The notes under the pieces were generated by a model. That model was not told the DNA's origin, ran no database searches, and saw only the letters and a list, made by a program, of their open reading frames with translations. This document shows, piece after piece, positions 2,455 through 52,762 of a stretch of 64,000 nt of DNA; positions within the stretch are counted from its first letter, which is position 1, and every line of letters starts with the position of its first letter. The stretch is taken from positions 61,017-125,016 of the forward strand of contig JAHBYA010000006.1 of assembly GCA_019636195.1 (NCBI GenBank), given 5' to 3'. A program made the position numbers and the translations under genes. Source of the stretch: Planctomycetota bacterium (GTDB lineage Bacteria; Planctomycetota; UBA8742; UBA2392).

Positions 2455-4071
2455 ATGCGCTTTCGCCTGCTTGCCGCCGCGCTGCTTGCGTGTGCGCCGC
2501 TGTGCGCCGAGACATACTACGCCGACCCCGCGGCCGGCAAGTCGTCCAACCCCGGCAGCAAAGCCGCCCCCTGGGGCGCGCTTGAAGATGTCATCGCAAG
2601 CGGCGCGCTGGCAAAGCTCAAACCTGGCGACACACTGCTGCTGCGCGGCGGCTTGCACGGCCGGGCCGTGTTTTCGGGCGACAACGCCGACTTTGTCACC
2701 ATCGCCGCCGAAGACGGCCACCGCCCGCGCCTGAGCTACCTTGAAATCACGCGCGGCCGCAAGTGGCGCGTGCGCGGGCTTACCGTCAGCGCGTCGTTCA
2801 GCGACAAGCCCTACGAAGGCGCGATGATCAAGTTTGCCGACGGCGGCGACTCGGCGGAGATTGAGCTGCTGGACTGCTTTGTGTATTCCACCCTTGACAC
2901 GTCAAGCTGGTCGGCCGAGCAGTGGATGAAGGCAAACTCGGGCATCACCATGGGCCGCCACGGCACGGGCCACGTGGTGCGCAACTGCTACGTGATGAAC
3001 ACGCGCTTCGGCATCAACCTGTGCGCCGAAAACTCGCTGTGCGAAGGCAACGTGATTTCGCACTTTTCGGCCGACGGCATCCGCGCCACGCGCGACGGCC
3101 AGGTGGTGCAGCACAACGTGATCCGCAACATCTACGTCAGCGACGACGACGGCGACAAAAACCACGACGACGCCATCCAGGTCTTCCTGTTCAACAAGGG
3201 CACCGGCACCGTGCGCAACATTACCCTGCGCGAAAACGTCATCATCATGCGCGAGAACGAACAGCAGCGCTGGCCCGCCAACATGCAGGGCATAGGCTGT
3301 TTTGACGGGCCGCTGATCGGCTTTACGGTTGAAGGCAACGTGATCAACACCAGCCACTGGCACGGCGTGTCGCTGTACGACGCGCAGGGCTGCAAGATCC
3401 TGAACAACGTTTGCTACACGCAATGGACCGACAGCAAGCTGCGCCCATGGGTTGAGCTTGGCACCAAGAAAGTCGGCGAGGTCAAGGACAACGAGGTCAA
3501 GAACAACCACGCCTACAGCTTTCGGCTGGACAACGACAAGGGCGTAGCCGCCGAAGGCAACCTGCCCCCAAGCGCCGAGATTCACGACAAGCGCCAGAAA
3601 GAGCTGCTGGCGAAAATCGACGAAAAGCACGGCAAGCTGCACCCCGTGGCGGGCTTCCGCCGCACCGGCCTTGAAAAGACGCGCTGGCAGGAGGGCCGAG
3701 TCGTTGACGGCGAAGGCGGCAAAGTGATCGACGCCATCGAATCGGCGCGGCAAGCCGAAAAAGTCGTCGTGCTGTTCGTGTTTACGCGCGATCTCAAGGA
3801 CAAAAAGGGCGTTCAGGCCTGCGAAGACTTTGAGCGCGAAGTGCTGGCCGGCGACGAAATCGGCAAGCTGCTGGACCAGTGCGCGACCATCGGCGTGTGC
3901 CTTGACGACGTGCCGCGCGACTTGCGCAAGCGCTACTATATAGGAAGTAAGTCGCCGCAACTGGTGATCATCCGGCCCGACGGCACGGAGGGCTACAGCG
4001 GCAAGCCCGGAAACGCCAAGGCACTCTTGAAACAGCTTGAGGCCGCATTGAACCCGGAAAAGGGGAAATGA
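2455..4071 (+). CDS. Secreted right-handed beta-helix (pectin-lyase fold) protein with C-terminal thioredoxin-like domain
   Basis: Signal peptide. Repeated beta-helix rungs (NVISHFSADGIRAT, VQHNVIRNIY, ...). Paralogous to the next gene. The C-terminal approximately 130 aa resembles a thioredoxin-fold domain lacking CxxC. RBS CAGGAG 5 nt upstream. Confidence 0.7.
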   Translation: MRFRLLAAALLACAPLCAETYYADPAAGKSSNPGSKAAPWGALEDVIASGALAKLKPGDTLLLRGGLHGRAVFSGDNADFVTIAAEDGHRPRLSYLEITRGRKWRVRGLTVSASFSDKPYEGAMIKFADGGDSAEIELLDCFVYSTLDTSSWSAEQWMKANSGITMGRHGTGHVVRNCYVMNTRFGINLCAENSLCEGNVISHFSADGIRATRDGQVVQHNVIRNIYVSDDDGDKNHDDAIQVFLFNKGTGTVRNITLRENVIIMRENEQQRWPANMQGIGCFDGPLIGFTVEGNVINTSHWHGVSLYDAQGCKILNNVCYTQWTDSKLRPWVELGTKKVGEVKDNEVKNNHAYSFRLDNDKGVAAEGNLPPSAEIHDKRQKELLAKIDEKHGKLHPVAGFRRTGLEKTRWQEGRVVDGEGGKVIDAIESARQAEKVVVLFVFTRDLKDKKGVQACEDFEREVLAGDEIGKLLDQCATIGVCLDDVPRDLRKRYYIGSKSPQLVIIRPDGTEGYSGKPGNAKALLKQLEAALNPEKGK

Positions 4072-5591
4072 CCATGCGCGCGCTGCTGATACCGGTATGG
4101 CTTGTCGCAACCGCATGCTGCGCCGCCGACTTCTACGTTGACCCAGTCAACGGCAGCGCGACCGGCAACGGCAGCGCGGGCAACCCGTGGCTGACGCTGC
4201 AACAGGTCGTTACTGACAACCTGATCGAAAGCCAGGTCTGGAACAGCCTGCCCTACACCGCAGGCGCGACGCTGGTGCCCAAGAATGCGGGCGCGCCGGT
4301 CAAGGCCGGCGACACGATCTGGCTGCGCACGGGCTATCACGGCGAGCTGATACTCAACGGCTGGTACAACAGCGCGCCGATCACGATACGGCGGCAGTCA
4401 GGCCACACGCCGCGCCTGCGCCGCGCCAGCCTGATCGGCGCGAGCAACTGGATACTGGACGGCTTGTCGATCAGCCCGGCGCACGCGCCGACGTTTACAG
4501 CCACGACGATCATCACCATGCGCGGCGACGGCTTTTGGGGCCCGGCGCAGGGCATGATTGTGCGCAACTGCGACGTGTTTTGCGGCAACGACGCAAGCGC
4601 GTGGACGGCGCAGGACTGGATCGACAATGCCAGCACAGCCTTTGATTCACGCAGCGACACCACGCAGATTTTGAACAACACGATCCGCAACACGCGCTAC
4701 GCCATCGCGTGCAGCGGCGCCAACTGCGTCGTGCGCGACAACGTGATTGACGGCTTTTCCGGCGACGGCATTCGCGGCCTGGGCGACTACGGCGTGTACG
4801 AATACAACGTGGTCAAGAACGCCATTGACGTCGGCGACGGCCACCACGACGACGGCTTTCAAAGCTGGTCGGTCGGGCCCGGCGGCGTGGGCACCGGCAG
4901 CGTGACGGGGGTTGTGCTGCGCGGCAATACGTTCATTAACCACGAGAATCCCAGCCACCCGATGCGGACCACCATGCAGGGCGTGGGCTGCTTTGACGGC
5001 TGGTTTGACGACTGGGTGATCGAGAACAACGTGGTCATCACCGACCACTGGCACGGCATCACGCTGCTGGGCGCGCGCAACTGCCGCATCGTGAACAACA
5101 CGGTGATTGACCTGTACACCGGCACGCCCGGCCCGTCGTGGATACAGATCGGGTTTCACAAGGACGGCACACCCAGCGAAGACTGCGTGATTCGCAACAA
5201 CCTCAGCAACACGATCAGCGTGCCCGGCGGCCAGACCAACATCGTCTCGGACCACAACATTCTCGTGAACGACCCGAGCTTGTTTTTCGTGGACCCGGCG
5301 GCGTTCAACCTGCGATTGCTTGAAACCGCGTCGGCTGTGGATGCGGGCAGCGGCGCGCTTGCGCCCGGCATCGACCGCGACAAGTTTGCACGGCCTTATG
5401 GTGCCGGTATTGATGTCGGCGCCTACGAGTGGCACCCGCCCGGCAGCGGCGGCGGCGGTTCAGGCGGCGGCAAGGGCGACGGCAAAGACAGCAGTTGCAG
5501 CACCTCGGGCGCGAAAGCCCCCGCGTTGTGGGTGCTTGTCCTGCTGCCCGCCATTCTGCTGGCAATGCGCAGGCAGCGCCCCGCCCGCTAA
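4068..5591 (+). CDS. Secreted beta-helix protein (paralogue of the previous gene) with Gly-rich spacer and C-terminal Cys/TM/Arg sorting tag
   Basis: ATGA start/stop overlap with the upstream gene. Signal peptide. Shared motifs HDDxxQ, MQGxGCFDG, HWHG. C-terminal ...GGGGSGGGKGDGKDSSC-STSGAKAPAL-WVLVLLPAILLAM-RRQRPAR. Confidence 0.7.
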   Translation: MTMRALLIPVWLVATACCAADFYVDPVNGSATGNGSAGNPWLTLQQVVTDNLIESQVWNSLPYTAGATLVPKNAGAPVKAGDTIWLRTGYHGELILNGWYNSAPITIRRQSGHTPRLRRASLIGASNWILDGLSISPAHAPTFTATTIITMRGDGFWGPAQGMIVRNCDVFCGNDASAWTAQDWIDNASTAFDSRSDTTQILNNTIRNTRYAIACSGANCVVRDNVIDGFSGDGIRGLGDYGVYEYNVVKNAIDVGDGHHDDGFQSWSVGPGGVGTGSVTGVVLRGNTFINHENPSHPMRTTMQGVGCFDGWFDDWVIENNVVITDHWHGITLLGARNCRIVNNTVIDLYTGTPGPSWIQIGFHKDGTPSEDCVIRNNLSNTISVPGGQTNIVSDHNILVNDPSLFFVDPAAFNLRLLETASAVDAGSGALAPGIDRDKFARPYGAGIDVGAYEWHPPGSGGGGSGGGKGDGKDSSCSTSGAKAPALWVLVLLPAILLAMRRQRPAR

Positions 5592-8987: not shown

Positions 8988-11096
<2,109 letters not shown>

Positions 11097-11254
11097 AGGA
11101 CCCCCCACGTCGGGTTTGGATAGTTGTTGTTCTATAGTAACAAACGGTGTCACATCCTTACGCGCCCACCGAAAAATGAACCGTTACACGTCCATTACGG
11201 CATTCAAGCAACAACCCTCAGTTGCAATTGAACTTACGGCTCGCGGAGGCTTGC

Positions 11255-19728: not shown

Positions 19729-19859
19729 CGCGAACATTGCAATGGCCGCCTGAAACACTACTCTGGGTGGTGCGTATTCCCCTTGGGGTCCGGTTTGCGA
19801 TGTCCTGCCATCGGCAGGCCGTCCGCGATTTGGACTACGGTGATTCAGGAGGAGACACC

Positions 19860-22682
19860 GTGCGCAACATTGCCTTGCTGACGCTGCTTTGCACCGCGCC
19901 GCTGCTCGCGCAGGTTACAAACGACAACTGGGAGCCGAACAACACCGCCGCAACAGCCGTGGACATGTTCATGCAGGTTTCGCCCGCGACCACGATGGGC
20001 GGCTACCGCCTTTCTCTCGCCGGGCGGCCGTTTGACGACCAGTTGAAAATCACGCCTAATGACAACGACTGGTACAAGGTCGGGCAAGTGTTCACCGTGC
20101 CCAACGGCACCTTGAAGGTTTACGTCAACCAGACCAGCAACCTGCAATACGCGCTCAGCGCCCAAATCACGGACAGCACCGGCGCCACCGTGCTGGCTGG
20201 GCCCGGCGTCGGCACCTACTTCACGCTTGCGTCGCCCAGCAATCCCAACCCGGGACTGGATCTGTACGACGGCGCACGCGCCGAGACAGCGGTGACCAGC
20301 GGCAGCGTGTACCTGATACGCGTCTATGCCAACCCGCCGGTGCCCAGCGGCAACAGCGTGGATTACGAGCTTTCCATCGAGTTCACGCCCAGCGACTCGG
20401 CTGAGGGCAGCTACAGCAACAACTTTCCGGGCTGGGCGCCCAACCCCGCCTTTCCCGCGGGCAGCAACCCCTCTGAGGCAACGCCCTCAGGCTACGGGGC
20501 GGGCAACGCCAAGCTGTACCAGTCGGTCAGCTGGCGCGGGTTTGACTATTACATGGTACGGCTGACTGCACCGGCAATCATCACCGTCGATCTCGGCAAC
20601 TTCGCCAACATGCCCGCTACAACCGTCAACTATGACGTGTACTGGATGCGCCAGGACGGCCTGATGATTCCTTCCAGCGCACCGGGACAGCCGCTGGCCG
20701 GCGCCTCTGACACCTTTCCGATGGGCTGGCCCGGCCCGGGCATCGCCGTCGTGACCACGCCCAACACCAGCGAGCAGATCACAACGCCCGCGCTTTCGCC
20801 GGGCGTGTACTACTTTCAGGTCATCACATGGGACACCAGCGCCGGCACGCTGGCGCTTGGCTACAACGCGGGCAACTACGACATTACGTTCACGCTGACG
20901 TCCGCCAGTGATGACGCGCTGGAAGGCACCGCACCCAACGAAAACGACATAGCCGCCAACGCGGCCACGCTGCCGCCGGGCACCACCAGCAACCTGCGCC
21001 TGCTGTACAACCCCAACGGCCAGGAAGAAGACTGGTACAAGGTAACGCTTGCGGACGGCGACAACCTGAACGTGCGGTTGACAGTCACCCAGCCATCGAC
21101 TGACGACCTGAACATCATCCTGTACCGGCCCAACGCGACCACCCCCGGCGCAGCAGCCGATCTTGTGGACTCATCGTTCATCAACAACACCGACACCGCC
21201 ACCAAGGGCGGCACGACCGCCAGTGAAGTCGTGGGCACCTGGGGCAGCGTCGGCAACTCGGGCAACACCGGCTTGCCGGCGGGCGACTACCTGGTGCGAA
21301 TCGTCAACGGCAATTCGCTCAGCCAGGGCGGGGTGCCGCAAAACGGCGGCTACTCGCTGACGGTGACGATCAGCTTCAGCAACGTGGACATCGCGCCCGA
21401 GGACAGCAAGGAACCCAATGACTCAGCGGCGCAGGCCTTTGCCACGGCCAACACATACCTTGAGCTTTCACGCGGCATGAACTCGGGCCTCAAGGCCATG
21501 GACTTCCAGGACTGGTTCCGGGTGCCCGCGGTCCAGCGCAACCACAGCGTTGAGATTACGCTGATCTACGACGGCGGCGCGAACACTGACCTTGATATCG
21601 TCGTCTTTGACCAGAACTTCGGGCCCAACTACGCAACCACCGGCGCCATGTCGGTGCTGGCTTCCAGCTTCGCCAATGAAAACTCGCCCGGCGCCGTGGT
21701 CACGGTCAACGGCACCGCCGGCAGCACATGGGGCACGTCGCCCAACACCGCGCCCATCTTTGTCGCGATCCAGCGCTGGAACAGCCTGGGCGCGAGCTAC
21801 ACCATCAATGTCAACATCAACAACGCCAACCCGCTGCCTCCTCTGCGCATGAACAGCATGAACATCAACCCCACCAGCTTCACGGCCCCCGCAGGTACGC
21901 AGGTTACGGTGCAGGTCGAGAACATCGGCGCCACGCCTGCCGACGTGGCAACCATGACGCTGCGCCTGACACACGCCACCGGCGCCATTGTCACAAATCA
22001 GTACACGATTACCGGGCCGACACCGGCGCTGCCGGCGACAATCGCCGCAGCGTCAACGCAGAACTTCGTGTTCGATATCGGCAGCACGACCCAGTGCACC
22101 AACGGTGTGGTCACGGTCAGCGTCACGGCGACTGACGGGAGCGGCAACCCGCTGCTTGGTGCGCCCAACGGCACGTTCACGCTGTCCGGGGGGCAAGCCC
22201 CGGCGCCGCTGCTGGTGTACCAGCAGGTCTCCGCCTCGGGCATGACCAACCCCGGCGGCAACGTCACGCTGTCACTGGTGATCCGCAACGACGGCACGGC
22301 GGGAGGGGTGTTCGGCGACACGCCGCCGATCACGTTCACGTTTACGCAGGGCGCCACTGACGTGACCGGCTTCTTCAGCGGCCCGACCGCGCCCAGCCAG
22401 ACGCTGCCCATGAACGTCGCCATCGGCCAGGTGCGCACGGTAAGCTGGACCTGGATTATCGGCACCAACCCGTCGCTCGGCACCACGACCATCACAGCCA
22501 GCGGCGGCGGGCCGGACAACCCTGCCACGCCGGCCACTGTCAACTTCAACCTGAGCCTGCCCAGGAACAAGGACAAGAGCGGCAGCAGCGGCTGCGTGCT
22601 GGGCGCGGCACCCGCGTGGTTGCCGCTGGCGGCCCTCGCGTCGCTGGCAGCCATTCGCCGTCGGCGCCAGAGACAGGGCTAA
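19860..22682 (+). CDS. Large secreted protein with multiple PPC (pre-peptidase C-terminal, EPNxT/D..DWY) domains and C-terminal Cys/TM/Arg sorting tag
   Basis: GGAGGAG RBS 6 nt before GTG 19860. Signal peptide. PPC signatures NWEPNNTAATA, NENDIAANAATL...DWYKVTL, KEPNDSAAQAF...DWFRV. C-terminal ...KSGSSGC-VLGAAPA-WLPLAALASLAAI-RRRRQRQG. Confidence 0.7.
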   Translation: MRNIALLTLLCTAPLLAQVTNDNWEPNNTAATAVDMFMQVSPATTMGGYRLSLAGRPFDDQLKITPNDNDWYKVGQVFTVPNGTLKVYVNQTSNLQYALSAQITDSTGATVLAGPGVGTYFTLASPSNPNPGLDLYDGARAETAVTSGSVYLIRVYANPPVPSGNSVDYELSIEFTPSDSAEGSYSNNFPGWAPNPAFPAGSNPSEATPSGYGAGNAKLYQSVSWRGFDYYMVRLTAPAIITVDLGNFANMPATTVNYDVYWMRQDGLMIPSSAPGQPLAGASDTFPMGWPGPGIAVVTTPNTSEQITTPALSPGVYYFQVITWDTSAGTLALGYNAGNYDITFTLTSASDDALEGTAPNENDIAANAATLPPGTTSNLRLLYNPNGQEEDWYKVTLADGDNLNVRLTVTQPSTDDLNIILYRPNATTPGAAADLVDSSFINNTDTATKGGTTASEVVGTWGSVGNSGNTGLPAGDYLVRIVNGNSLSQGGVPQNGGYSLTVTISFSNVDIAPEDSKEPNDSAAQAFATANTYLELSRGMNSGLKAMDFQDWFRVPAVQRNHSVEITLIYDGGANTDLDIVVFDQNFGPNYATTGAMSVLASSFANENSPGAVVTVNGTAGSTWGTSPNTAPIFVAIQRWNSLGASYTINVNINNANPLPPLRMNSMNINPTSFTAPAGTQVTVQVENIGATPADVATMTLRLTHATGAIVTNQYTITGPTPALPATIAAASTQNFVFDIGSTTQCTNGVVTVSVTATDGSGNPLLGAPNGTFTLSGGQAPAPLLVYQQVSASGMTNPGGNVTLSLVIRNDGTAGGVFGDTPPITFTFTQGATDVTGFFSGPTAPSQTLPMNVAIGQVRTVSWTWIIGTNPSLGTTTITASGGGPDNPATPATVNFNLSLPRNKDKSGSSGCVLGAAPAWLPLAALASLAAIRRRRQRQG

Positions 22683-27219: not shown

Positions 27220-29868
27220 ATGCGCTTTGCTTTGAAGGTGCGCCTTGCGGCGCTTTGTTTGTTGGTTGCTTCGGCCACACTGCTCAACGGCCAGTACATC
27301 ACGCCTGAGGTTGAACCAAACAATGATTTTACCATGCCCCAGGCGCTGACGCTGGTCAACGGCTCGGCCCGGCTGCGCGGCAACATCTTCCCGAATGGCG
27401 ATCTCGACTTCTACTCGTTCAGCGGCAACACCGGCGACCGCGTGTTCGCGGCGACCATGACTTCAGCCAGCGCCAGCGCCAGCACGGACAGCCTGCTGCA
27501 ACTGATTGCCCCGGACGGCACGACAATCATCGAAGCCGACGACAACGACGGCACATTTAGTGGATCTTCCTCGTCAATTGCCGGCGCCACACTGACCAGC
27601 ACCGGCACCCATTACCTCCGGGTTACGCACGCCAGCCCGACCAGCCAGTTGCGCTTCTATGACCTGTATTTGCGTGTGGTACCGGCAGCTACGGTTTTTA
27701 CTGCCGAATCCGAACCCAACAACGATATCGCCAGCGCGACTGTCCTTGGCGCCGACCTCGTCGCCAGCGGCAGCGTCAACCCGGCCGCGGACGTTGACTA
27801 CTTTGCGATTGACCTGAACGCCGGCGACACCGTTTTCCTCAGCCTTGACCTTGACCCCGAACGCGACGGCACCACGTTCAACGGAAGACTTGGATTTGGC
27901 CCCTTAGGCGGATTCTTACTTGTTGCCAACGACGCCTCGGTGACTTCCCCGAATTCCGAGGCACACTTCTACACCGTTGCCACTTCGGGCACTTACTACA
28001 TCTTCGTGGATGAACAGGGTGGCGGCGGCGGCGCTACGTTCACTTACCGTCTTGCGGTCGCCGTGTTTCCAGACGTCACAATCGGCACGCGGATCGTTTA
28101 CAGCAGCACATCGACGCCGGAGGCGATTCCAACCACCGCCGGCGGTCTGGTTCTGAACACGGTCACAGTGCCGGATAACCGCCGGATCGGCCGGTTGGCT
28201 GTGGCCCTGTCCATCTCCCACGCCACCGTCGCGGACCTCGACATTTGGCTGACTTCGCCCAGCGGCACCAACGTTCACCTTGCCACGGACGTGGGCGGCG
28301 CCACGGGCATGTCCTGCGTACTGGATGAGTATGCAGGGAATGTGGTCGGTTCGTTCACCGTCCTCCAGAACGCCTGGCTGCAGCCTGAACTGAACGGTCG
28401 GCTTTCCTGGTTCAATGGGATGTCATCTGCGGGTACTTGGACTCTCAACATCGCCGTGGACACTGCCGGTGCGGGCGGAACGCTGGACTTCTGGGCGCTG
28501 GTCATCGAAGACGAGCCGATCCCGGCGCTGAGCGTTGCGCCCTACACACTGCAAACGGTGTTCAGCAGCGACTTTGAAGCCAACGACGGCGGCTTTACTC
28601 ACAGCGGCACCCAGGACGAATGGGAGCGCGGCACGCCCACGTTTGCGCCGATTATCAGCGCGTTCAGCGGCACCAACTGCTGGTGCACGGATTTGGACAA
28701 CACATACAACGCGAGTTCTGACCAGACGCTGGTTTCGCCGCCCATCGACCTGACAAACTATGTGGCGCCGATCCGCGCACGCTGGGCCATGGCCCATCAG
28801 ATGGAAAGCGCGACCTTTGACACGCTCAGAATCGTCGTGCGCGAAGTGGGCAACCCCTCCTTCGCTGTCACGCTGTACACTTGGCTTGGCGCGACCCAGA
28901 CCATTTCAGCCGGCAATCCGGCGGCCACGATCCAGCAGTCGCTGGGTTGGGGGCAGTTCTATGGCGACATCTCTGCGCTGGCGGGACTGACTGTCGAGTT
29001 TGTCGTGCAATTGACCAGCGACACATCCGTCCAGTACGCCGGCGTGGCGATTGACGACGTCATGATCGAAGGCGCCCTGAACCAGGCGCCCGTCTATACG
29101 CCGCCCGCGGGCAACGTGATCCGCGGCCAGCAGTCCGGCGCCAACGACAGCAACATCGGCACGATCTCAGACGCCGAGACACCCGTGACGTCCATGGGCC
29201 TGATCATCATTTCGGCCGCACCCACAGGCGTCACGTTCGGGACGCCGTATGCTAACGTCTCGGGCGCACTGATGCTGCCCATCACCATGAGCATGGCGGC
29301 AGTGATCGGCACATACCCGATTGACCTTATCATCGTCGATGGCGACGGTGGCCTTGACAGTGGACAGTTCATCCTTGAGGTTGTCGCCGGTACAGCCGGG
29401 ATAGCCAACAACCCGCCCGTGTACACACCGCCCGCGGGCAACGTGATCCGCGGCCAGGAGTCGGGCAGCAACGGCAGCGCCATCGGCACAGTATCGGACG
29501 TTGAGACACCCGCGGCATCGCTGGTGGTCGCGATCACAAGCGCGGCCCCGACAGGCATCACCTTCGGGACACCGACCGTGAACGCCTCAGGCGTAGTCAC
29601 GCTGCCGATCACCATGACCACGGCGGCTGTGATCGGCACATACCCGATCGACCTTACCGTCACCGACGGCGACAGCGCGGTCACGAACGGCCAGTTCACA
29701 CTGGAAGTCGTGGCTGGCAGCGCTGGCGGCGGCGGCGGCAAGAAGAAGGGCGGGGGCGGCGACGACAAAAAATGCAGCGCCGACGCGACCTCGTCATGGC
29801 AATGGCTTGCACTGCCGGGCCTGCTTGCGGTGCTGGCCCTGCGCAGACGCCGAACAGCCCGCGCATGA
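27220..29868 (+). CDS. Large secreted protein with PPC domains, proprotein-convertase P-domain, two tandem 109-aa repeats and C-terminal Cys/TM/Arg sorting tag
   Basis: AGGAG RBS. Signal peptide. PPC motifs VEPNNDFTMPQA..DLDFYSF and SEPNNDIASATV..DVDYFAI. P-domain-like ADLDIWLTSPSGTNVHL. C-terminal GGGGGKKKGGGGDDKKC-SADATSS-WQWLALPGLLAVLAL-RRRRTARA. Confidence 0.75.
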   Translation: MRFALKVRLAALCLLVASATLLNGQYITPEVEPNNDFTMPQALTLVNGSARLRGNIFPNGDLDFYSFSGNTGDRVFAATMTSASASASTDSLLQLIAPDGTTIIEADDNDGTFSGSSSSIAGATLTSTGTHYLRVTHASPTSQLRFYDLYLRVVPAATVFTAESEPNNDIASATVLGADLVASGSVNPAADVDYFAIDLNAGDTVFLSLDLDPERDGTTFNGRLGFGPLGGFLLVANDASVTSPNSEAHFYTVATSGTYYIFVDEQGGGGGATFTYRLAVAVFPDVTIGTRIVYSSTSTPEAIPTTAGGLVLNTVTVPDNRRIGRLAVALSISHATVADLDIWLTSPSGTNVHLATDVGGATGMSCVLDEYAGNVVGSFTVLQNAWLQPELNGRLSWFNGMSSAGTWTLNIAVDTAGAGGTLDFWALVIEDEPIPALSVAPYTLQTVFSSDFEANDGGFTHSGTQDEWERGTPTFAPIISAFSGTNCWCTDLDNTYNASSDQTLVSPPIDLTNYVAPIRARWAMAHQMESATFDTLRIVVREVGNPSFAVTLYTWLGATQTISAGNPAATIQQSLGWGQFYGDISALAGLTVEFVVQLTSDTSVQYAGVAIDDVMIEGALNQAPVYTPPAGNVIRGQQSGANDSNIGTISDAETPVTSMGLIIISAAPTGVTFGTPYANVSGALMLPITMSMAAVIGTYPIDLIIVDGDGGLDSGQFILEVVAGTAGIANNPPVYTPPAGNVIRGQESGSNGSAIGTVSDVETPAASLVVAITSAAPTGITFGTPTVNASGVVTLPITMTTAAVIGTYPIDLTVTDGDSAVTNGQFTLEVVAGSAGGGGGKKKGGGGDDKKCSADATSSWQWLALPGLLAVLALRRRRTARA
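29080..29733 (+). repeat. Intragenic tandem repeat, 2 x 327 bp (2 x 109 aa)
   Basis: Units begin NQAPVYTPPAGNVIRGQQSG... and NPPVYTPPAGNVIRGQESG.... A 30-nt identical core (ccgcccgcgggcaacgtgatccgcggccag) occurs at 29101 and 29428. Confidence 0.8.
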
Positions 29869-29965
29869 GGCAACACCATCACGAACAAACAACCCGGCCC
29901 GCAAGGGCCGGGTTTGCGTTTGATCGCCACTTCTCTGGACCCTGCGTGCCTTGCATAGTGGGGCG

Positions 29966-32686: not shown

Positions 32687-33125
32687 ATGCGCAAGCTTAT
32701 CGCCTCACTCGCAGTGTTCGCGCTCTTCGGCTTCGCCGCCGGGTTGAACGCTCAGGCGCCCAACCCCCAGGCTGAGATCAAGAGCCCGGACGCCAACAAG
32801 CCGAACACGCACGACCGTTCGGCTGGCCATGCAGTGATCAAGGTGCCGTCGCCGGCGACTCCTCCGACGACCCCGCCGGAACCTGCTCCGCCCCCGCCCC
32901 CGCAGAACCCCACGCCTCCCAGTGAAGGCGAAGACATTCCGCCCAGCGAAACACCCCCGGACCCGCCGCCGCCGGAAGATCCGCCGACCTACTACGGCGA
33001 GCCGGTGCAGGGCAAGTTCGCCTTCATCTTGGACGCCAGTGGCAGCATGTATGGGAGCCGCGTCGCCAGCATGCGCGCTGAGACCACGGCTGTGATCCAG
33101 GACCTGACCGAGAACGACGAACTCG
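32687..33125 (+). repeat. Near-identical duplicated segment (5' part of VWA copy 1), about 85-90% nt identity to 35157-35595
   Basis: Stretches of 60-80 identical nt (e.g. aacaagccgaacac.cacgaccgttcggctggccatgcagtgatcaaggtgccgtcgccggc). Reflects the tandem gene duplication. Confidence 0.7.
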
Positions 33126-33514
33126 ACGCAGTTGCCTTCGGCGACCAGTTCGGCGCGGCTCAGCACTACAGCGTCTTCATGTGGGGCGCCCTGCTGCCCG
33201 CCACGGACGGCAACAAGTCCAGCGCGATCTCGTGGGTCAACGGCTCTGCGACGAACCCCGGCGGCGGTACCCCGTCGTACGCCTGCCTCAAGCGCAGCTG
33301 CCAGATCTACCCCGCCGACCTCGACAAGATGTTCTTCCTGAGCGACGGCTACCCCAACACCAGCGGCAGCGCCAGCCAGATTCTGGCTGACTTCCCCGGA
33401 TGGTGGAACAAGTTCACCGACTGCACCTTGGTCTGCATCTGCATCGGTGGCGGCGGCGCCAGCTTCATGCAGCAGCTTGCGGCACTCGCCGGCGGCATCT
33501 ACATCGCGGCTTAG
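32687..33514 (+). CDS. Secreted von Willebrand factor type A (VWA) domain protein with Pro-rich linker (copy 1)
   Basis: Signal peptide. PTPP-rich spacer. MIDAS motif DASGSM. FFLSDGYP. A sigma54-like element lies 50 bp upstream. Confidence 0.75.
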   Translation: MRKLIASLAVFALFGFAAGLNAQAPNPQAEIKSPDANKPNTHDRSAGHAVIKVPSPATPPTTPPEPAPPPPPQNPTPPSEGEDIPPSETPPDPPPPEDPPTYYGEPVQGKFAFILDASGSMYGSRVASMRAETTAVIQDLTENDELDAVAFGDQFGAAQHYSVFMWGALLPATDGNKSSAISWVNGSATNPGGGTPSYACLKRSCQIYPADLDKMFFLSDGYPNTSGSASQILADFPGWWNKFTDCTLVCICIGGGGASFMQQLAALAGGIYIAA

Positions 33515-33644: not shown

Positions 33645-34871
33645 ATGGACAACGATCGACGCAAGTTTCTGCACTACGCGGCCGCCATCACCGGCGTTTC
33701 AGTGCTTGCCGCATGCGGCGACAAGCCGGCAAACAATGCCGGGCCCGCCAACACGGCCGCGCCTGACGAGCCGGAGCCAACACCCGAGATTGTCGATACC
33801 CCCGGCAAGCGCGGCATGCTGATCGGCCCCGGCAGCGCCAGCGGTGAGACCAAGTGCTGGCTGACGTTCATCGCGCTCGACCACGTTGAAGAGTACGCCA
33901 CCGGCAAGCGCAAGGTTGACCGCCTGCCGATTGCGTTTCCCGGCCACGCCGTCGTGCCCCACCCGACCCAGCCGCATCTGGCAGCCGTGTTCCAGAAGTG
34001 GGGACCGGGCGCCTGCGAAGTTGACCTGGTAGAGCGCAAGGTCACCCGCCCCATCACCACCGTGCCCGAGCGCATGTTCTACGGCCATGGCGCCTGGTCC
34101 AGCGACGGCAAGCTGCTTTACGCCGTTGAAAGCACAGACCCCAAGCTCGGCCCCTATGAAGGCTCGGTCGTTGTGCGCGATGCCGGCAACCTGCGCATCA
34201 TGGCTGAGTTCCCGACCTACGGTATGCAGCCCCATGACTGCCACCTGCTGGACGACGGCCGCACACTCGGCATTACCAACGGCGGCGGCCCCCCCGGCGG
34301 CAACGAGCCGGGGTGTGTCACTTTCGTGGATATCCAGACCCAGGCGCTGCTCGAGAAGGTCACGATCCCGGAGCTGATGGCCGGCCACCTGATGACCAGC
34401 GGGCGCAGCAGCAAGGGCGACCTGGCGGTCGGCTGTACGCCGCATTCGCCACCGGGCACCGGGCCTGAAGGTTTCAAGACTGTGCCGGGCGGGTTGGCCC
34501 TGCGAGCGGCGGGCAGCAAAGACCTGAAGCTGATGCGCCAGCCGGCCACGGTCACGGGCAAGATGCTGGGCGAAACACTCAGCCTTGCAATCCATGAGCG
34601 GCGCGGAATTGCGGGCGCCACCAACCCGGCAGGAAACATCGCGACGTTCTGGAAGGTCGCGACCGGCGAACTGATCAAGAGCTTTGAGCTTCCGGTTGCC
34701 CGCGGCATCGGCCTTACGCTGGACAACACACATTTCCTGGTCAGTTACGGCATGGACGCCAGCCTGGTGATGATTCGGGCCTCTGACCTTGAGCTTGTGC
34801 CCGCCACACGGCTGACCGGCGACAACAAGTCGTATGTAACGGGCTCGCATTTCATCACTTACGACCTTTAG
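33645..34871 (+). CDS. Tat-signal lipoprotein, beta-propeller-like (DUF1513-like) (copy 1)
   Basis: Twin-arginine motif RRKFL. Lipobox LAAC. Propeller-like repeats (YGHGAWSSDGKLLY...). DUF assignment from memory only. Confidence 0.6.
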   Translation: MDNDRRKFLHYAAAITGVSVLAACGDKPANNAGPANTAAPDEPEPTPEIVDTPGKRGMLIGPGSASGETKCWLTFIALDHVEEYATGKRKVDRLPIAFPGHAVVPHPTQPHLAAVFQKWGPGACEVDLVERKVTRPITTVPERMFYGHGAWSSDGKLLYAVESTDPKLGPYEGSVVVRDAGNLRIMAEFPTYGMQPHDCHLLDDGRTLGITNGGGPPGGNEPGCVTFVDIQTQALLEKVTIPELMAGHLMTSGRSSKGDLAVGCTPHSPPGTGPEGFKTVPGGLALRAAGSKDLKLMRQPATVTGKMLGETLSLAIHERRGIAGATNPAGNIATFWKVATGELIKSFELPVARGIGLTLDNTHFLVSYGMDASLVMIRASDLELVPATRLTGDNKSYVTGSHFITYDL

Positions 34872-35156: not shown

Positions 35157-35595
35157 ATGCGCAAAGTTATCGCAGCTTTCGCGATCTTTGGCTTGCTCGG
35201 GTTCGCCGCCGTTGAGCTGAACGCTCAGACGACGCCGCAATCCGAGATCAAGAGCCCCGACGCGAACAAGCCGAACACCCACGACCGTTCGGCTGGCCAT
35301 GCAGTGATCAAGGTGCCGTCGCCGGCTACACCCCCGACGACACCGCCGGAACCGGCGCCTCCGCCGCCTCCGCAGAACCCCACGCCCCCGAGCGAGGGCG
35401 AGGACATTCCGCCCAGCGAAACACCCCCGGATCCCCCACCGCCGGAAGATCCGCCGACCTACTACGGCGAGCCGGTGCAGGGCAAGTTCTGCTTCGTGCT
35501 GGACGCCAGCGGCAGCATGTACGGCAGCCGTATCGCCAGTCTGCGCGCTGAAACAACCAGCGTGATTCAGGACCTGACCGAAAACGACGAGCTTG
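35157..35595 (+). repeat. Duplicated segment partner (5' part of VWA copy 2)
   Basis: See 32687-33125. Confidence 0.7.
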
Positions 35596-35981
35596 ACTGC
35601 TGCGCTTACGGCGGCCAGTTCGCGGCGCCCAACCACACCGTGTTCATGTGGGGTGCACTGCTGCCTGCCACCGACGGCAACCGCAGCAGCGCCATCAGCT
35701 GGGTCAACGGTCCCACCACCAACCCCGGTGGCATGACCCCCAGCTACGCGGCCCTGAAGCTTTCGTGCCAGACCTACCCAGCCGACCTTGACAAGATGTT
35801 CTTCGTCACCGACGGCTACCCGAACATCACCGGCAGCGCCAGCCAGATTCTGGCTGACTTCCCCGCCTGGTGGAGCAAGTTCACGGACTGCACGCTGATC
35901 TGCATCTGCATCGCTGGCGGCGGCGCGAGCTTCATGCAGCAGCTCGCGGCACTGGCCGGCGGTGTGTACATCGCAGCCTAG
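35157..35981 (+). CDS. Secreted VWA domain protein (copy 2, paralogue of 32687-33514)
   Basis: About 83 aa identical to copy 1 (EIKSPDANKP...GEPVQGKF), then about 90% identity. MIDAS motif DASGSM. Sigma54-like element upstream. Confidence 0.75.
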   Translation: MRKVIAAFAIFGLLGFAAVELNAQTTPQSEIKSPDANKPNTHDRSAGHAVIKVPSPATPPTTPPEPAPPPPPQNPTPPSEGEDIPPSETPPDPPPPEDPPTYYGEPVQGKFCFVLDASGSMYGSRIASLRAETTSVIQDLTENDELDCCAYGGQFAAPNHTVFMWGALLPATDGNRSSAISWVNGPTTNPGGMTPSYAALKLSCQTYPADLDKMFFVTDGYPNITGSASQILADFPAWWSKFTDCTLICICIAGGGASFMQQLAALAGGVYIAA

Positions 35982-36062: not shown

Positions 36063-37268
36063 ATGGGTCCGATTCCGACCAACCCTGATCGTCGTCGCTT
36101 CCTGGCGGGCACCGCAGCCGCCAGCCTGCTTGTCGCCTGCGGTAAACCCGCCGAAAACGCGCCCGCGAACCGGGGCGAGCCTGAGCCCCCAAAGCCGCGC
36201 GAGTTCAAACGCGGCAACCTGGGCACCGTGATCGGCGGCGGCGTCGCCGTAACCGATGCCGGCAAGGCCTGGTTCGTCGGCATCGTCAACCTTGACGCTG
36301 AAAGACCCACGGCCGCGACCATCGACGACATCGGCTTTCTGGGCCACGGCTTCACGCCCAACCCGGTAAAGCCGGAAACTGCCGTCGTCTGCGAAAAGCA
36401 CGGCCCCGGCTGCTGCGAAATCGACCTGGTCAAGCGCCGCGTGCTGCGCCGCATCAAGACCACCGCCGGCCGACAGTTCTATGGCCACGGGGCATTCTCG
36501 CCCGACGCAAAACTGTTCTATTGCACCGAAGCTGAAACCGGAAACTACAGCTACAAAGGCGTACTGGCTGTGCGTGACGGCGCCAGCTTTGAGTTGCGCA
36601 GCGAGAGTTTCCCGACCCATGGCGTGGCGCCACACGACTGCATTCTTGTGGACAACGGCGAAACGCTGGTGATCACCAACGGCGGCGGCCCGGTCGACAA
36701 GCCGGACGAGCCCGCCAGCGTGGCCTATGTCGATGTGAAGTCCGGCAACGCCCGCCGCGTGCTGAAGTTCCGCGACGACAAGATCAACGCCGGGCACATC
36801 GCCATCACCGGCAAGGGCGAGCTGGTGTGCGTGTCAGCCCCCCGCGACGGCATTGAACAGAAGATCAAGGGCGAACCCAACCCCGACTGGGTCGGCGCGA
36901 TCACGTTCTATGACCCCGCGACCGACAAGCTGACCACCGCCGAGGACCCGATCCGCGAAAAGATGAAAGGCGAAACGCTCAGCGTTGCGATCCATGAACC
37001 CAGCATGATCGTGGCGGCGACGAATCCCGCGGGCAACTTGCTCACGTTCTGGGATTTCAAGACCGGCAAGCTGGTGCACAGCATTGAGGGCGAGTTCAAG
37101 TCGCCGCGCGGCGTAAGCCTGACGCTCGACGGCAACTACTTCGCGGTCACCTATGACCAGGAGACGCACCTGGCGTTGATTGACGCGCAGACCTTCAAGG
37201 TGATTGAGCAAAGCAAGGTTGACAGAACCTTCATCTCGGGCAGCCACAACATCGTCTATAAGCTGTAG
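36063..37268 (+). CDS. Tat-signal lipoprotein, beta-propeller-like (copy 2, paralogue of 33645-34871)
   Basis: RRRFL Tat motif. Lipobox LVAC. Shared motifs YGHGAFSPD, PHDC, ITNGGGP and C-terminal ...GSH.I.Y.L. Confidence 0.6.
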   Translation: MGPIPTNPDRRRFLAGTAAASLLVACGKPAENAPANRGEPEPPKPREFKRGNLGTVIGGGVAVTDAGKAWFVGIVNLDAERPTAATIDDIGFLGHGFTPNPVKPETAVVCEKHGPGCCEIDLVKRRVLRRIKTTAGRQFYGHGAFSPDAKLFYCTEAETGNYSYKGVLAVRDGASFELRSESFPTHGVAPHDCILVDNGETLVITNGGGPVDKPDEPASVAYVDVKSGNARRVLKFRDDKINAGHIAITGKGELVCVSAPRDGIEQKIKGEPNPDWVGAITFYDPATDKLTTAEDPIREKMKGETLSVAIHEPSMIVAATNPAGNLLTFWDFKTGKLVHSIEGEFKSPRGVSLTLDGNYFAVTYDQETHLALIDAQTFKVIEQSKVDRTFISGSHNIVYKL

Positions 37269-51817: not shown

Positions 51818-52762
51818 ATGAAAGCGTTTGTCGCGATTCTTGCGGTTTGCGCCTGCGCGTCGCTGCCGGCGCAGGACCAGCTTGCGGTCTCGGGTACCGT
51901 AGCCGACGGGTTTGAGCGCGCAATTCTGGTCAACGTGAACTTTGGCGGCGCACCCCAGTCCCTGACCCTTACACTGAACATTGCCGCCACCAGCGGGTCG
52001 GCAGGACTGGATGTTGAACTGATCGACCTGGATGAACTGGCGGCCAACGGCAGCACCGCCGCAACCGTTGAAGACAGCGACCCGGGTACCGGCAACATCA
52101 TGCTGACGTTGCCCACGGGCAACTACAGCGGCACCCGCCAGTTCGCGATCCTGGTTTACACCAACACCAACGGCACGTCACCGTTTTCAGGCACGCTCAG
52201 CGAAGCGACTCTGGCGCCGGGGTCCATGACGCTGGCTGGACAGGTGACAAACAATGTCAGCGCGGTACCGGCGCGGCAAACCCTGTTTGACCGCAGCGCG
52301 CGACATGTGGTCGAACACCCGGGCGCGCGCACGACCACCAGCGATGTACGTGTCAACTTTGGCGGCGGCACACAAGCCGTCACGTTCTGGGTCAGCGCCA
52401 TCACCTTTGCGGGCGACACGACTGTCCAGGTGTACGAGATTGACAGCACCGGGGCTGAGCAACTCCTCGGCAGCACAGTCGCATCGGGGCTCGGCAGCAG
52501 CGAGATCAATGTTTCCAGTTCCGCCAGGACGGGCAACGTGACATTCCGGTTCAAGATCATCACTCCCGGCGCATCCATCGTGTCCGCGTATTGGGCAGTA
52601 TTCCCCGGCACGGTCAGCGTGTCCGGCTTTGCGGGCGGGGGCGGCGGCGGCGGCGACAAGGGCTCCTGCACAACCACCGGCGCTGGCTCCGGATGGCTGG
52701 CCGTTGCGGGTACTCTGGCCGCGCTGGTGCTGGGTTTGCGCCTGTACCGGACACGCGCGTAA
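51818..52762 (+). CDS. Secreted protein with internal duplication and C-terminal Cys/TM/Arg sorting tag
   Basis: AGGAGA RBS. Signal peptide. Duplicated VNVNFGGAPQ / VRVNFGGGTQ modules. C-terminal GGGGGGGDKGSC-TTTGAGSG-WLAVAGTLAALVLGL-RLYRTRA. Confidence 0.6.
   Translation: MKAFVAILAVCACASLPAQDQLAVSGTVADGFERAILVNVNFGGAPQSLTLTLNIAATSGSAGLDVELIDLDELAANGSTAATVEDSDPGTGNIMLTLPTGNYSGTRQFAILVYTNTNGTSPFSGTLSEATLAPGSMTLAGQVTNNVSAVPARQTLFDRSARHVVEHPGARTTTSDVRVNFGGGTQAVTFWVSAITFAGDTTVQVYEIDSTGAEQLLGSTVASGLGSSEINVSSSARTGNVTFRFKIITPGASIVSAYWAVFPGTVSVSGFAGGGGGGGDKGSCTTTGAGSGWLAVAGTLAALVLGLRLYRTRA

Follow-up and report, generated by a model that had tools for sequence, protein, structure and literature searches.

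Cysteine-type C-terminal sorting signals

Tripartite C-terminal signals that contain a Cys, together with the CPBP-family 'myxosortases', were recognised only in 2023-2025, among Myxococcota, Bradymonadales, Synergistota, the JDVT lineage and Thermococcales. They are distinct from GlyGly-CTERM signals (TIGR03501), in which a GG motif directly abuts the helix. We know of no identified lipid transferase for the MYXO-CTERM-type pathway. Co-expression in E. coli has been carried out for MrtX and TraA. In a curated review, the range of MYXO-CTERM is given as Myxococcota and Bradymonadales, lineage-specific signal forms are described as diverging and requiring custom models, and all four Cys-type tags studied are paired with CPBP enzymes (Haft 2023, 10.1101/2023.06.07.544157). 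No report of a Cys-type tripartite signal in Planctomycetota was found in the searchable literature.

Four tagged proteins in the window

The window, the whole stretch of 64,000 nucleotides of DNA that was analysed, belongs to a MAG of an uncultured planctomycete and was found to encode four secreted proteins that end in a common tag (Table 1). In this tag, a flexible spacer of Gly, Asp and Lys leads to a single Cys; 7-10 small residues then separate the Cys from a hydrophobic helix of 13-20 residues, and an Arg cluster closes the tail. Each tag ends immediately 5' of the stop codon of a long plus-strand ORF with coding-type GC3, and the translations agree exactly with the four intervals and sequences reported in a first-pass annotation of the DNA. 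A poly-Gly/Lys/Asp spacer had been described there for every tag; poly-Gly is present in three, but not in carrier 2.

A six-frame scan covering the 542 ORFs of 60 aa or longer in the window identified exactly these four tails combining Cys, hydrophobic stretch and Arg, along with three further hydrophobic, basic-ended tails, none of which possesses the tag architecture. When ORFs of 150 aa or more were searched with a single regular expression, tagged ORFs made up 4/148 in the window and 6/666 in related Planctomycetota loci; loci of other phyla, with 628 such ORFs, contained none. A chance origin was rejected on these counts. DNA identity between the window tags is only 58-62%, which shows that they are not recent copies and led to the rejection of a recently duplicated tag cassette as their origin. 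Furthermore, the carriers share no significant pairwise similarity outside the tail (BLASTP, all E > 0.1). The recurrence of the tag on four otherwise unrelated secreted proteins is confirmed as real.

Table 1. Tagged carrier proteins of the window and their C-terminal tags
Feature	Position	Strand	Description	Basis
Carrier 1	4068..5591	+	Secreted right-handed beta-helix protein, choice-of-anchor Q domain directly 5' of tag	Pfam, NCBIfam
Tag 1	5496..5588	+	C-STSGAKAPAL-WVLVLLPAILLAM-RRQRPAR, GSGGGGSGGGKGDGKDSS just before	Carrier 1 C-terminus
Carrier 2	19860..22682	+	940-aa secreted protein, repeated PPC-like and Ig-like regions	Translation; Pfam all sub-threshold
Tag 2	22593..22679	+	C-VLGAAPA-WLPLAALASLAAI-RRRRQRQG, spacer NKDKSGSSG without poly-Gly	Carrier 2 C-terminus
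Carrier 3	27220..29868	+	882-aa secreted protein: PPC, proprotein-convertase P-domain, sub-threshold MAM-like region, two Ig-like repeats	Pfam
Tag 3	29773..29865	+	C-SADATSS-WQWLALPGLLAVLAL-RRRRTARA, GGGGGKKKGGGGDDKK just before	Carrier 3 C-terminus
Carrier 4	51818..52762	+	314-aa secreted protein of small family	Without Pfam or NCBIfam match
Tag 4	52667..52759	+	C-TTTGAGSG-WLAVAGTLAALVLGL-RLYRTRA, GGGGGGGDKGS just before	Carrier 4 C-terminus

All four carriers have a Sec signal-peptide-like N-terminus, as read by eye from the translations with no predictor. Carrier 1 passes the Pfam threshold for Beta_helix (39.6 bits) and matches NCBIfam choice_anch_Q over residues 413-454 (35.2 bits), a placement before the tag that fits the choice-of-anchor name, which we take to denote domains found beside differing anchors. 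It corresponds to GenBank MBX3459932.1 / MCW8135669.1, annotated there to start two codons later, with P0001 being 100% identical. Carrier 2 begins at the GTG at 19860, which follows a Shine-Dalgarno site (AGGAGGAG), and not at the TTG at 19737; the orthologue in a strain of 95% identity (L173), in which tag 2 is kept, was also called as 940 aa. Carrier 3, which is directly adjoined downstream by lpxC, passes for P_proprotein (40.9 bits) and PPC (33.2 bits), with InhA-like_MAM falling below its cut-off (20.2 against 26.9 bits).

Carrier 4 gave no domain match in Pfam or NCBIfam. Its AF2 model is all-beta and of low confidence (pLDDT 55.6), suggesting that the fold probably comprises two all-beta domains. 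The family forms 60 clusters among 1.84 billion representatives, and of its members, the four that come with a source name all bear the label Planctomycetota. The first-pass annotation had described the carriers as beta-helix, PPC-domain, P-domain and beta-sandwich proteins, which holds for Beta_helix in carrier 1 and for PPC and P_proprotein in carrier 3; however, PPC is sub-threshold in carrier 2 (14.6 bits) and the fold of carrier 4 is indicated by the low-confidence model only.

Recurrence and conservation in the Planctomycetota lineage

Relatives of the LpxC encoded beside carrier 3, at 73-83% identity, were identified in 14 MAGs labelled Planctomycetota or Planctomycetaceae and in one 'uncultured bacterium', and the tagged proteins are named at NCBI as Planctomycetota. 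At least five tagged proteins occur in the source MAG, namely the four of the window and MBX3460647.1 on another contig. More tagged ORFs were found at loci of related MAGs (L009, L011, L014 with two, L015, and L104 with two), and tagged orthologues were collected as P0002-P0010, with P0121-P0123 as lineage orthologues of carrier 3. A degenerate DNA pattern (GGGG...D-x-G-C-[ST]-T), scanned once against metagenomes, recovered real tags in three among the 80 matches listed (L050, L104, L110), a yield that gives no measure of how abundant the tag is. Tails of a CCGGG type were noted in Phycisphaerales (P0161, P0176, P0209).

Alignment of 71 tails (A1) showed the Cys to be the sole invariant column, with a tag consensus of polyG-D-x-G-C-[ST]-[TA]. 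Nearly all lineage tags have a single Cys followed by S/T and then T/A, and long Gly runs lie upstream of most. In the carrier-4 family, the Cys tag was present in 50 of the 51 members with an intact C-terminus, down to approximately 25% identity. Across the 51 tails of this family, Gly occupies position C-1 in 33, S/T/A position C+1 in 45 and T/A position C+2 in 44, and the first basic residue follows the Cys at a distance of 16-28 (mode 23). These patterns point to selective constraint on the tag. The helix had been proposed to begin with Trp. This is so for all four window tags, but it does not hold as a lineage rule, the residue being found in 16 of 20 and in about half of 51 wider-lineage tags; Trp is thus frequent, yet was rejected as a defining residue. 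Similarly, the suggestion that a Cys-x8-10-Trp spacing marks a lineage-specific variant was upheld as regards the variant but not the spacing, the signature instead being D-x-G-C-[ST]-[TA] with a tight Cys-to-Arg distance.

Comparison with curated models and known systems

The tails were compared with curated sorting-signal models using cut-offs of 20 bits (TIGR03901.2) and 15.85 bits (TIGR03382.1) for MYXO-CTERM, 15.5 bits for GlyGly-CTERM (TIGR03501) and 16 bits for PEP-CTERM (TIGR02595). As whole proteins, none of the four window carriers passed for MYXO-CTERM, with scores of 19.4 bits for carrier 1 and 13.8 bits for one other, the remaining two giving no match. When isolated from its protein, tag 1 reached 25.2 bits on TIGR03901. 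Tag 2 alone remained below the cut-offs of JDVT-CTERM (19.3 bits), MYXO-CTERM (18.3 bits) and GC_trans_RRR (15.7 bits), as did tag 3 for MYXO-CTERM (17.2 bits), and tag 4 matched no NCBIfam sorting model even at E <= 10. Ordinary membership of an existing TIGRFAM, which the first-pass annotation had named as grounds for refutation, gave a borderline result, with one of four isolated tails and none of the whole proteins passing TIGR03901.

At E <= 6e-4, 13 of the 71 isolated lineage tails matched MYXO-CTERM, near its cut-off. Other Cys-type matches were to GC_trans_RRR (four), Synerg-CTERM (one, E = 2.9e-8) and JDVT-CTERM (one), and four further NCBIfam matches were to tails of MYXO-CTERM-anchored protein families. 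Outside the Cys type there were only one LPXTG and one WGxxGxxG match. PEP-CTERM, GlyGly-CTERM and IPTL-CTERM matched none of the 71 tails at this threshold. No lineage tail reached 15.5 bits for GlyGly-CTERM, the best being 12.9 bits for an L014 tail; the PEP motif is absent, with a best PEP-CTERM score of 14.0 bits for one tail. Among the three classes of signal that had been named as candidates, these matches support only the Cys type (MYXO-CTERM and relatives), and not PEP-CTERM or GlyGly-CTERM.

Homologues of the carriers were found to bear other signals at the same position. Those of carrier 1 in Myxococcota (approximately 50-57% identity) end in DDGG-C-G-C-R...TM...RRRR, the classical GCGC form of MYXO-CTERM; several are labelled Myxococcota, Sandaracinaceae or Polyangiaceae by NCBI, and several are named 'MYXO-CTERM domain-containing protein' by JGI. 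The second Cys was present in 42 of 42 Myxococcota-type orthologue tails, a set gathered by a C-x-C pattern. Homologues of carrier 3 possess IPTL-CTERM (in Acidobacteriota), a T9SS tail or no tail.

The closest likeness of the tag is to MYXO-CTERM (TIGR03901 / TIGR03382; MrtX, MrtC and MrtP, CPBP family). Shared between the two are a tripartite layout at the extreme C-terminus, an invariant Cys after a disordered Asp/Gly-rich sequence (ddGGC in both), an aromatic residue that often opens the helix, the Arg cluster, and multiple unrelated secreted carriers per genome. One alternative is that the tails are ordinary MYXO-CTERM signals handled by a standard myxosortase of the MrtX, MrtC or MrtP type, with low scores reflecting the insensitivity of one short HMM. 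Such an explanation is regarded as unlikely. It would accommodate the score of isolated tail 1 and the 13 tails at about the TIGR03901 cut-off, as well as the need for custom models noted by Haft, and the true MYXO-CTERM on carrier 1 orthologues of approximately 55% identity suggests a common origin or transfer. However, none of the whole window proteins and only about one quarter of the isolated tails pass, and the current NCBI names of the tagged proteins make no mention of such a domain. The planctomycete tag has a single Cys followed by Ser-Thr in place of the GCGC double Cys, a Cys-to-Arg linker shorter by about five residues than in the Myxococcota orthologues (tails read by eye) and longer pure poly-Gly runs, and its host phylum lies outside the curated range of Myxococcota and Bradymonadales.

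Profile comparison also argues against ordinary MYXO-CTERM: custom profiles separated the tag and Myxococcota tails cleanly, with 30-56 bits for self and at most 17.5 bits for cross scores. In favour of a Cys-type signal, hhalign aligned the common ddgGC signature of the two sets (probability 89%). Weighing against that reading, the median score of the custom tag profile was 5 bits on Myxococcota MYXO-CTERM tails and 7.9 bits on Cys-free IPTL-CTERM tails; apart from ddgGC, the tag profile is no nearer to MYXO-CTERM than to IPTL-CTERM, and the cross-similarity is mostly generic helix and Arg. The lack of a second Cys and the shorter Cys-to-Arg distance count against it as well. The sequence comparisons support the tag as a separable, lineage-wide family that is mostly missed by curated models.

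With JDVT-CTERM and Synerg-CTERM the tag shares a single invariant Cys followed by one helix and an Arg cluster, and the character of a lineage-restricted variant that resembles MYXO-CTERM yet is easily told apart from it; the occasional cross-matches given above also link them (JDVT-CTERM on tag 2, Synerg-CTERM on one lineage tail). Unlike JDVT-CTERM, it has no DP motif, and a single system has many carriers, whereas in JDVT-CTERM an enzyme and its substrate form a dedicated gene pair. The invariant Pro of Synerg-CTERM, set within a Leu-rich helix, is missing. A CGP motif is also absent, and the phylum differs from those of the other single-Cys variants. The general tripartite design and Gly-rich upstream sequence are held in common with GlyGly-CTERM/rhombosortase and with PEP-CTERM or IPTL-CTERM/exosortase-type signals, but the planctomycete tag differs from these in its invariant Cys, a Gly run set away from the helix, the lack of a PEP or IPTL motif, and scores below the cut-offs of their models.

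Search for a processing enzyme

No sorting protease was identified in the window, in agreement with the first-pass annotation; its polytopic proteins were assigned by Pfam as two MFS transporters, a Na/Ca exchanger, a ferric reductase and a P-type ATPase. A CPBP motif pattern (EExxxR and HxxxN with at least three predicted helices) was applied to the window and loci L001-L015, where the sole match was an antisense shadow ORF and was dismissed. Among the later lineage loci, polytopic ORFs flagged for EExxxR were large transporters only. In total, approximately 457 kb of lineage DNA, part of it redundant, yielded no ORF with CPBP motifs; this absence says little, as it represents no more than about 10% of a single genome. 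A homologue search with a synthetic query composed of two MrtX-specific 13-mers (Haft 2023) returned nothing. No CPBP, rhomboid or exosortase gene lay near any of the seven tagged proteins whose gene neighbourhoods were inspected. At L167, a secretin gene was observed 1.3 kb from a tagged gene; it is weak evidence for the reading proposed below and the sole hint of type II secretion.

These searches in the window and lineage DNA would be in keeping with the tail being a plain membrane anchor, in which a stop-transfer helix and positive-inside Arg hold a periplasmic protein on the cytoplasmic membrane with no protease and no lipidation. A helix and Arg cluster suffice for anchoring, and the similarity to other tags is largely generic in just these parts. 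This is nevertheless considered very unlikely, because a simple anchor needs neither the invariant Cys nor the D-x-G-C-[ST]-[TA] motif, both of which lie outside the helix with closely constrained spacing to the Arg cluster and persist on unrelated carriers and at identities as low as approximately 25%; homologues moreover have sortase-dependent signals at the same position. Least probable is processing by a non-CPBP enzyme (rhombosortase, a member of the exosortase/archaeosortase family, or one of unknown type) with poly-Gly as a GlyGly-type recognition element, for which the Gly runs before most tags, the weak GlyGly-CTERM match of the L014 tail and the lack of an identified cognate enzyme would speak, but against which stand the acidic/basic stretch, Cys and 3-10 residues between Gly run and helix, the failure of every lineage tail to reach the GlyGly-CTERM or PEP-CTERM cut-off, the missing PEP motif, the absence of any Gly run in tag 2, and the pairing of all four studied Cys-type tags with CPBP enzymes (Haft 2023).

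Proposed processing and significance

The tails are most readily explained as a Cys-type tripartite sorting signal specific to this Planctomycetota lineage, which probably receives a lipid on its Cys and is cleaved by a myxosortase-like protease of the CPBP family; this reading is considered likely, with the link to CPBP made purely by analogy. The first-pass proposal of a sorting signal like those processed by exosortase, rhombosortase or myxosortase is consistent with every testable criterion for tripartite signals listed by Haft (2023, 10.1101/2023.06.07.544157, section 5). A motif, one helix and a basic cluster were found at the extreme C-terminus in all four tags of the window and in about 70 from the lineage; several unrelated carriers with signal-peptide-like N-termini occur per genome (at least five in the source MAG, those of the window being unrelated by BLASTP); and homologues elsewhere either lack the tail or have a different signal (carriers 1 and 3).

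On the model of the M. xanthus MYXO-CTERM pathway (Guo, Haft and Wall 2025, PMC11980579; Haft 2023, 10.1101/2023.06.07.544157), the precursor would be exported by Sec, and its tag helix would keep it tethered to the cytoplasmic membrane with the Arg cluster facing the cytoplasm. A lipid would then be added to the invariant Cys, which is set a few residues clear of the membrane, after which a dedicated, myxosortase-related intramembrane protease of the CPBP family (Rce1-like, glutamic-type) would remove the helix distal to the Cys. The lipid-anchored protein would finally pass to the cell surface, probably via a secretin of the type II secretion type.

It is possible, though held at somewhat less than even confidence, that the lineage runs a Cys-type system of its own with the signature polyG-D-x-G-C-S-T, delivering many lipid-anchored proteins to the surface; the protease might then be a new subfamily beside MrtX/C/P, MrtJ, MrtS and MrtA, or even lie outside CPBP. 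If true, this would offer a second, independent system in which to seek the lipid transferase of the pathway. Furthermore, the exchange of GCGC for C-S-T on orthologous carriers represents a natural experiment on recognition by the protease and the lipid transferase. The finding extends a known principle, and a new one is not claimed. The organisation of the Planctomycetota envelope is still debated, and a model for the tag would supply a phylogenetic profile with which to find the cognate protease in closed MAGs, and would allow many Planctomycetota exoproteins now called 'hypothetical' or given generic names to be recognised as surface-anchored.

C-terminal tails of four secreted proteins

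Four proteins of the window end in a tail consisting of a spacer, a cysteine, a short linker, a hydrophobic helix and an arginine cluster (Table). The first-pass annotation had translated these tails exactly, and each abuts the stop codon of a long ORF with coding-type GC3. A mechanical six-frame scan, covering 542 ORFs with a minimum length of 60 aa, identified exactly these four tails with cysteine, hydrophobic stretch and arginines; it also listed three further tails, hydrophobic with a basic end, that lack the architecture of the tag. A single fixed regular expression, applied to ORFs no shorter than 150 aa, flagged 4 of 148 as tagged in the window, 6 of 666 in related loci and 0 of 628 in loci of other phyla. 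The tags share only 58-62% DNA identity and are thus not recent copies, and no significant pairwise similarity was found among the carriers once the tail was excluded. Read by eye, the N-terminus of each carrier resembles a Sec signal peptide. The start of carrier 2 was placed at the GTG at 19860, preceded by a AGGAGGAG site, in preference to the TTG with which the mechanical ORF begins; its orthologue in a strain of 95% identity was called at 940 aa. A poly-Gly/Lys/Asp spacer was reported for every tag; a poly-Gly run precedes three of them but not tag 2. In carrier 1, a choice-of-anchor Q domain lies directly N-terminal to the tag. The tandem pair to which carrier 1 belongs, with an ORF overlap of 4 bases, is kept in two other loci (L043 and L044).

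Coordinates of tagged genes, their neighbours and features of compared loci
Feature	Sequence	Gene or region	Strand	Tag	Description
Carrier 1	window	4068-5591	+	5496-5588	beta-helix protein
Carrier 1 paralogue	window	2455-4071	+		beta-helix protein, signal peptide, no tag
Carrier 2	window	19860-22682	+	22593-22679
Carrier 3	window	27220-29868	+	29773-29865
Carrier 4	window	51818-52762	+	52667-52759
PAD protein	window	8988-11153	-		721 aa; PKD domain and full-length protein-arginine deiminase (PAD) domain (PF03068, 224 bits)
Carrier 3-lpxC gap	window	29868-29951
Carrier 3-lpxC insert	L173	12649-14709
Paralogue A	window	32687-33514	+		secreted, about 275 aa
Next gene after A	window	33645-34871	+		twin-arginine-like N-terminus
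Paralogue B	window	35157-35981	+		secreted, about 275 aa
Next gene after B	window	36063-37268	+		twin-arginine-like N-terminus
Tandem tagged genes	L050	598-4984	-		three genes
Secretin	L167	6540-8654	+		Secretin_N and Secretin
Carrier 4 paralogue locus	L168	6909-12370
Carrier 4 paralogue locus	L169	7331-12367

Recurrence of the tag in the source lineage

The LpxC gene directly downstream of carrier 3 has relatives at 73-83% identity in 15 MAGs, 14 of them bearing the label Planctomycetota or Planctomycetaceae and the other 'uncultured bacterium'; several have isolate names resembling those of wastewater projects, and three consist of a single contig each (2.7-4.1 Mb). The LpxC matches ranking next, in other phyla, drop to about 40% identity. 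GenBank MBX3459932.1 / MCW8135669.1 (Planctomycetota bacterium, 795-kb contig) matches carrier 1 at 100% identity. NCBI names of the tagged proteins refer to globular domains or are hypothetical, and never name a sorting domain. In the 95%-identity strain (L173), a 415-aa CarboxypepD_reg gene and a 70-aa ORF separate carrier 3 from lpxC, a gap of only about 80 bases in the window; the strains therefore differ by an insertion or deletion at this point.

Additional tagged ORFs were found in related MAG loci (L009, L011, L015 and, two in tandem, L014) and, again as a tandem pair, on a metagenome contig (L104). Lineage orthologues of carrier 1 (P0002-P0010) and three of carrier 3 (P0121-P0123) are likewise tagged. 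When carrier 4 was run with HMMER against the full set of 1.84 billion representatives, only 60 clusters emerged. In this family, 50 of the 51 members whose C-terminus is intact bear the tag, even at identities as low as about 25%; a source is named for four members, all labelled Planctomycetota, and one of these four, on another contig of the source MAG, is a fifth tagged protein of that MAG. Alignment of 71 tails gave the consensus polyG-D-x-G-C-[ST]-[TA], with the cysteine as sole invariant column and the first arginine conserved at >90%. In the carrier 4 family, the first basic residue beyond the helix follows the cysteine at a distance of 16-28 (mode 23). The tryptophan stressed in the first-pass annotation was seen in 16 of 20 tags and in roughly half of 51, but is not defining. 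The tag is a lineage-wide element under constraint.

Relation to curated sorting signals

Scanned whole, none of the four carriers passed any NCBIfam sorting model, the top score being 19.4 on MYXO-CTERM (cut-off 20), but one isolated tail did pass that model (25.2), a borderline outcome for the proposed comparison with existing TIGRFAMs. Two other isolated tails scored 17-18 on MYXO-CTERM, one of them matching JDVT-CTERM best (19.3), and one of the four matched no NCBIfam sorting model. At E <= 6e-4 (roughly 20 bits), the 71 lineage tails gave matches to MYXO-CTERM (13), GC_trans_RRR (4), Synerg-CTERM (1) and JDVT-CTERM (1), and four more hit the tails of protein families anchored by MYXO-CTERM; one LPXTG and one WGxxGxxG match were the exceptions, and none of the 71 matched PEP-CTERM, GlyGly-CTERM or IPTL-CTERM. 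Curated models now in use largely fail on the planctomycete tag, missing most copies. Using custom profiles, planctomycete tags scored 30-56 bits on themselves and at most 17.5 bits against 42 Myxococcota tails, not above Cys-free IPTL tails. With hhalign, only the ddGGC motif common to both groups aligned. Given these model scores, profiles and alignments, the tag is a separable relative of MYXO-CTERM, as JDVT-CTERM is. Ordinary MYXO-CTERM membership, with which the passing tails would agree, is unlikely, as the planctomycete tag has only one cysteine (C-S-T in place of G-C-G-C), its linker is shorter and it occurs in another phylum. The tag fits best among the Cys-type tripartite C-terminal sorting signals, as a new variant specific to Planctomycetota. 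The searchable literature yielded no account of a tag of this kind in the phylum.

Three tandem Cys-tagged genes lie on metagenome contig Ga0247822_10000939 (L050, 70% GC), with tags GGCCDAGG..., DGGICSAGG... and DDGGCSTARG..., one being of the C-S-T form; one of the tags scores 25.6 bits on MYXO-CTERM. Because of these tags, the C-S-T form may extend beyond the lineage to a higher-GC, possibly Myxococcota-like organism.

Tails of homologous and neighbouring proteins

Carrier 1 homologues of about 50-57% identity have the ending of classical MYXO-CTERM, DDGG-C-G-C-R followed by a helix and RRRR; several bear the NCBI label Myxococcota, Sandaracinaceae or Polyangiaceae, and the JGI name of several carrier 1 homologues is 'MYXO-CTERM domain-containing protein'. 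Other carrier 1 homologues are without a tail. Carrier 3 homologues in Acidobacteriota and Thermoanaerobaculia possess an IPTL-CTERM end (two so named by NCBI), with further homologues carrying a T9SS tail or none. Since the tail architecture occurs on unrelated carriers and homologues have other sorting signals, or no tail, at this position, the tag agrees with every feature of a tripartite sorting signal listed by Haft 2023 (10.1101/2023.06.07.544157) that is testable here, enzyme co-occurrence aside, and its position is that of a sorting signal. A plain membrane anchor is decidedly improbable in view of the invariant extramembrane cysteine motif and its fixed spacing.

Other endings were observed among carrier 3 homologues. 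P0161, P0176 (MCB9857854.1, labelled Phycisphaerales) and P0209 have another Cys-containing tripartite tail, ...PAACCGGG-LPALLPLMLLGW-KRKRRR (in P0161 ...GCCAPGAGPAVGLLVPGLLLTL-KGRKRRKP), which had no match above cut-off among NCBIfam sorting models and may represent a second Planctomycetota tag of the Cys type. Many show [FY]-L-P-[LVIFMA]-x-x-[KR] in the final 6-12 residues without helix or arginine cluster (P0140, P0149, P0150, P0153, P0154, P0167, P0172, P0174, P0177, P0180, P0182, P0189, P0190, P0202, P0210, P0216, P0227, P0228; P0172, the only one with a source name, is labelled Anaerolineae), which may be a different C-terminal signal. The conserved end ...SSCG[PA][VL]PVEL[AQLTM]GFS[VA]E of P0124, P0127, P0135, P0141 and P0203, those with names being labelled Acidobacteria or Holophagales, is another recurrent tail of this family.

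Within the window, paralogues A and B have a common C-terminus, ...GGASFMQQLAALAGG[IV]YIAA, which differs from the tag and is without an arginine cluster. Paralogue A, the one scanned, had no Pfam match; the gene after it, likewise the one scanned of its pair, matched DUF1513 (108 bits). Together, the four genes are a duplicated two-gene module.

Proposed processing and genes near tagged loci

If the M. xanthus pathway (PMC11980579; 10.1101/2023.06.07.544157) is taken as a model, carriers would be exported via Sec, the tag helix would keep them in the cytoplasmic membrane, the cysteine would receive a lipid, a myxosortase-related protease of the CPBP family would cut off the helix, and the carrier would then be transferred to the surface. 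We infer all of these biochemical steps; what is seen directly is sequence anatomy alone. Processing by a non-CPBP enzyme is very improbable, with zero matches of PEP or GlyGly type and a Gly run that does not adjoin the helix. As first reported, no sorting protease is encoded in the window, where the polytopic proteins are all MFS transporter, Na/Ca exchanger, ferric reductase or P-type ATPase. No CPBP-like ORF was found adjoining seven tagged genes or across lineage DNA totalling about 457 kb, some of it redundant, a sample too small for evidence of absence.

A stand-alone secretin gene (L167; GCA_041398505.1, contig JAWKUP010000002.1) lies 1.3 kb upstream of a tagged carrier 4 family gene, with a CorA gene in between; this 21-kb locus contains, secretin aside, no type II secretion genes. 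In L168 and L169, synteny is conserved around a tagged three-repeat carrier 4 paralogue (788-789 aa): both loci carry an ApeP-like gene and, divergently, a GT2-DUF2062 gene. A lipid A-type acyltransferase is present in addition in L168, and a DUF2064 gene in L169. This set resembles the lipid part of aryl-polyene-type clusters; linking it to tag lipidation is pure speculation.

The first-pass finding is real and its interpretation essentially right. A recently established principle, not itself new, here reaches a new phylum, and the planctomycete tag provides a concrete handle for finding the sorting enzyme.
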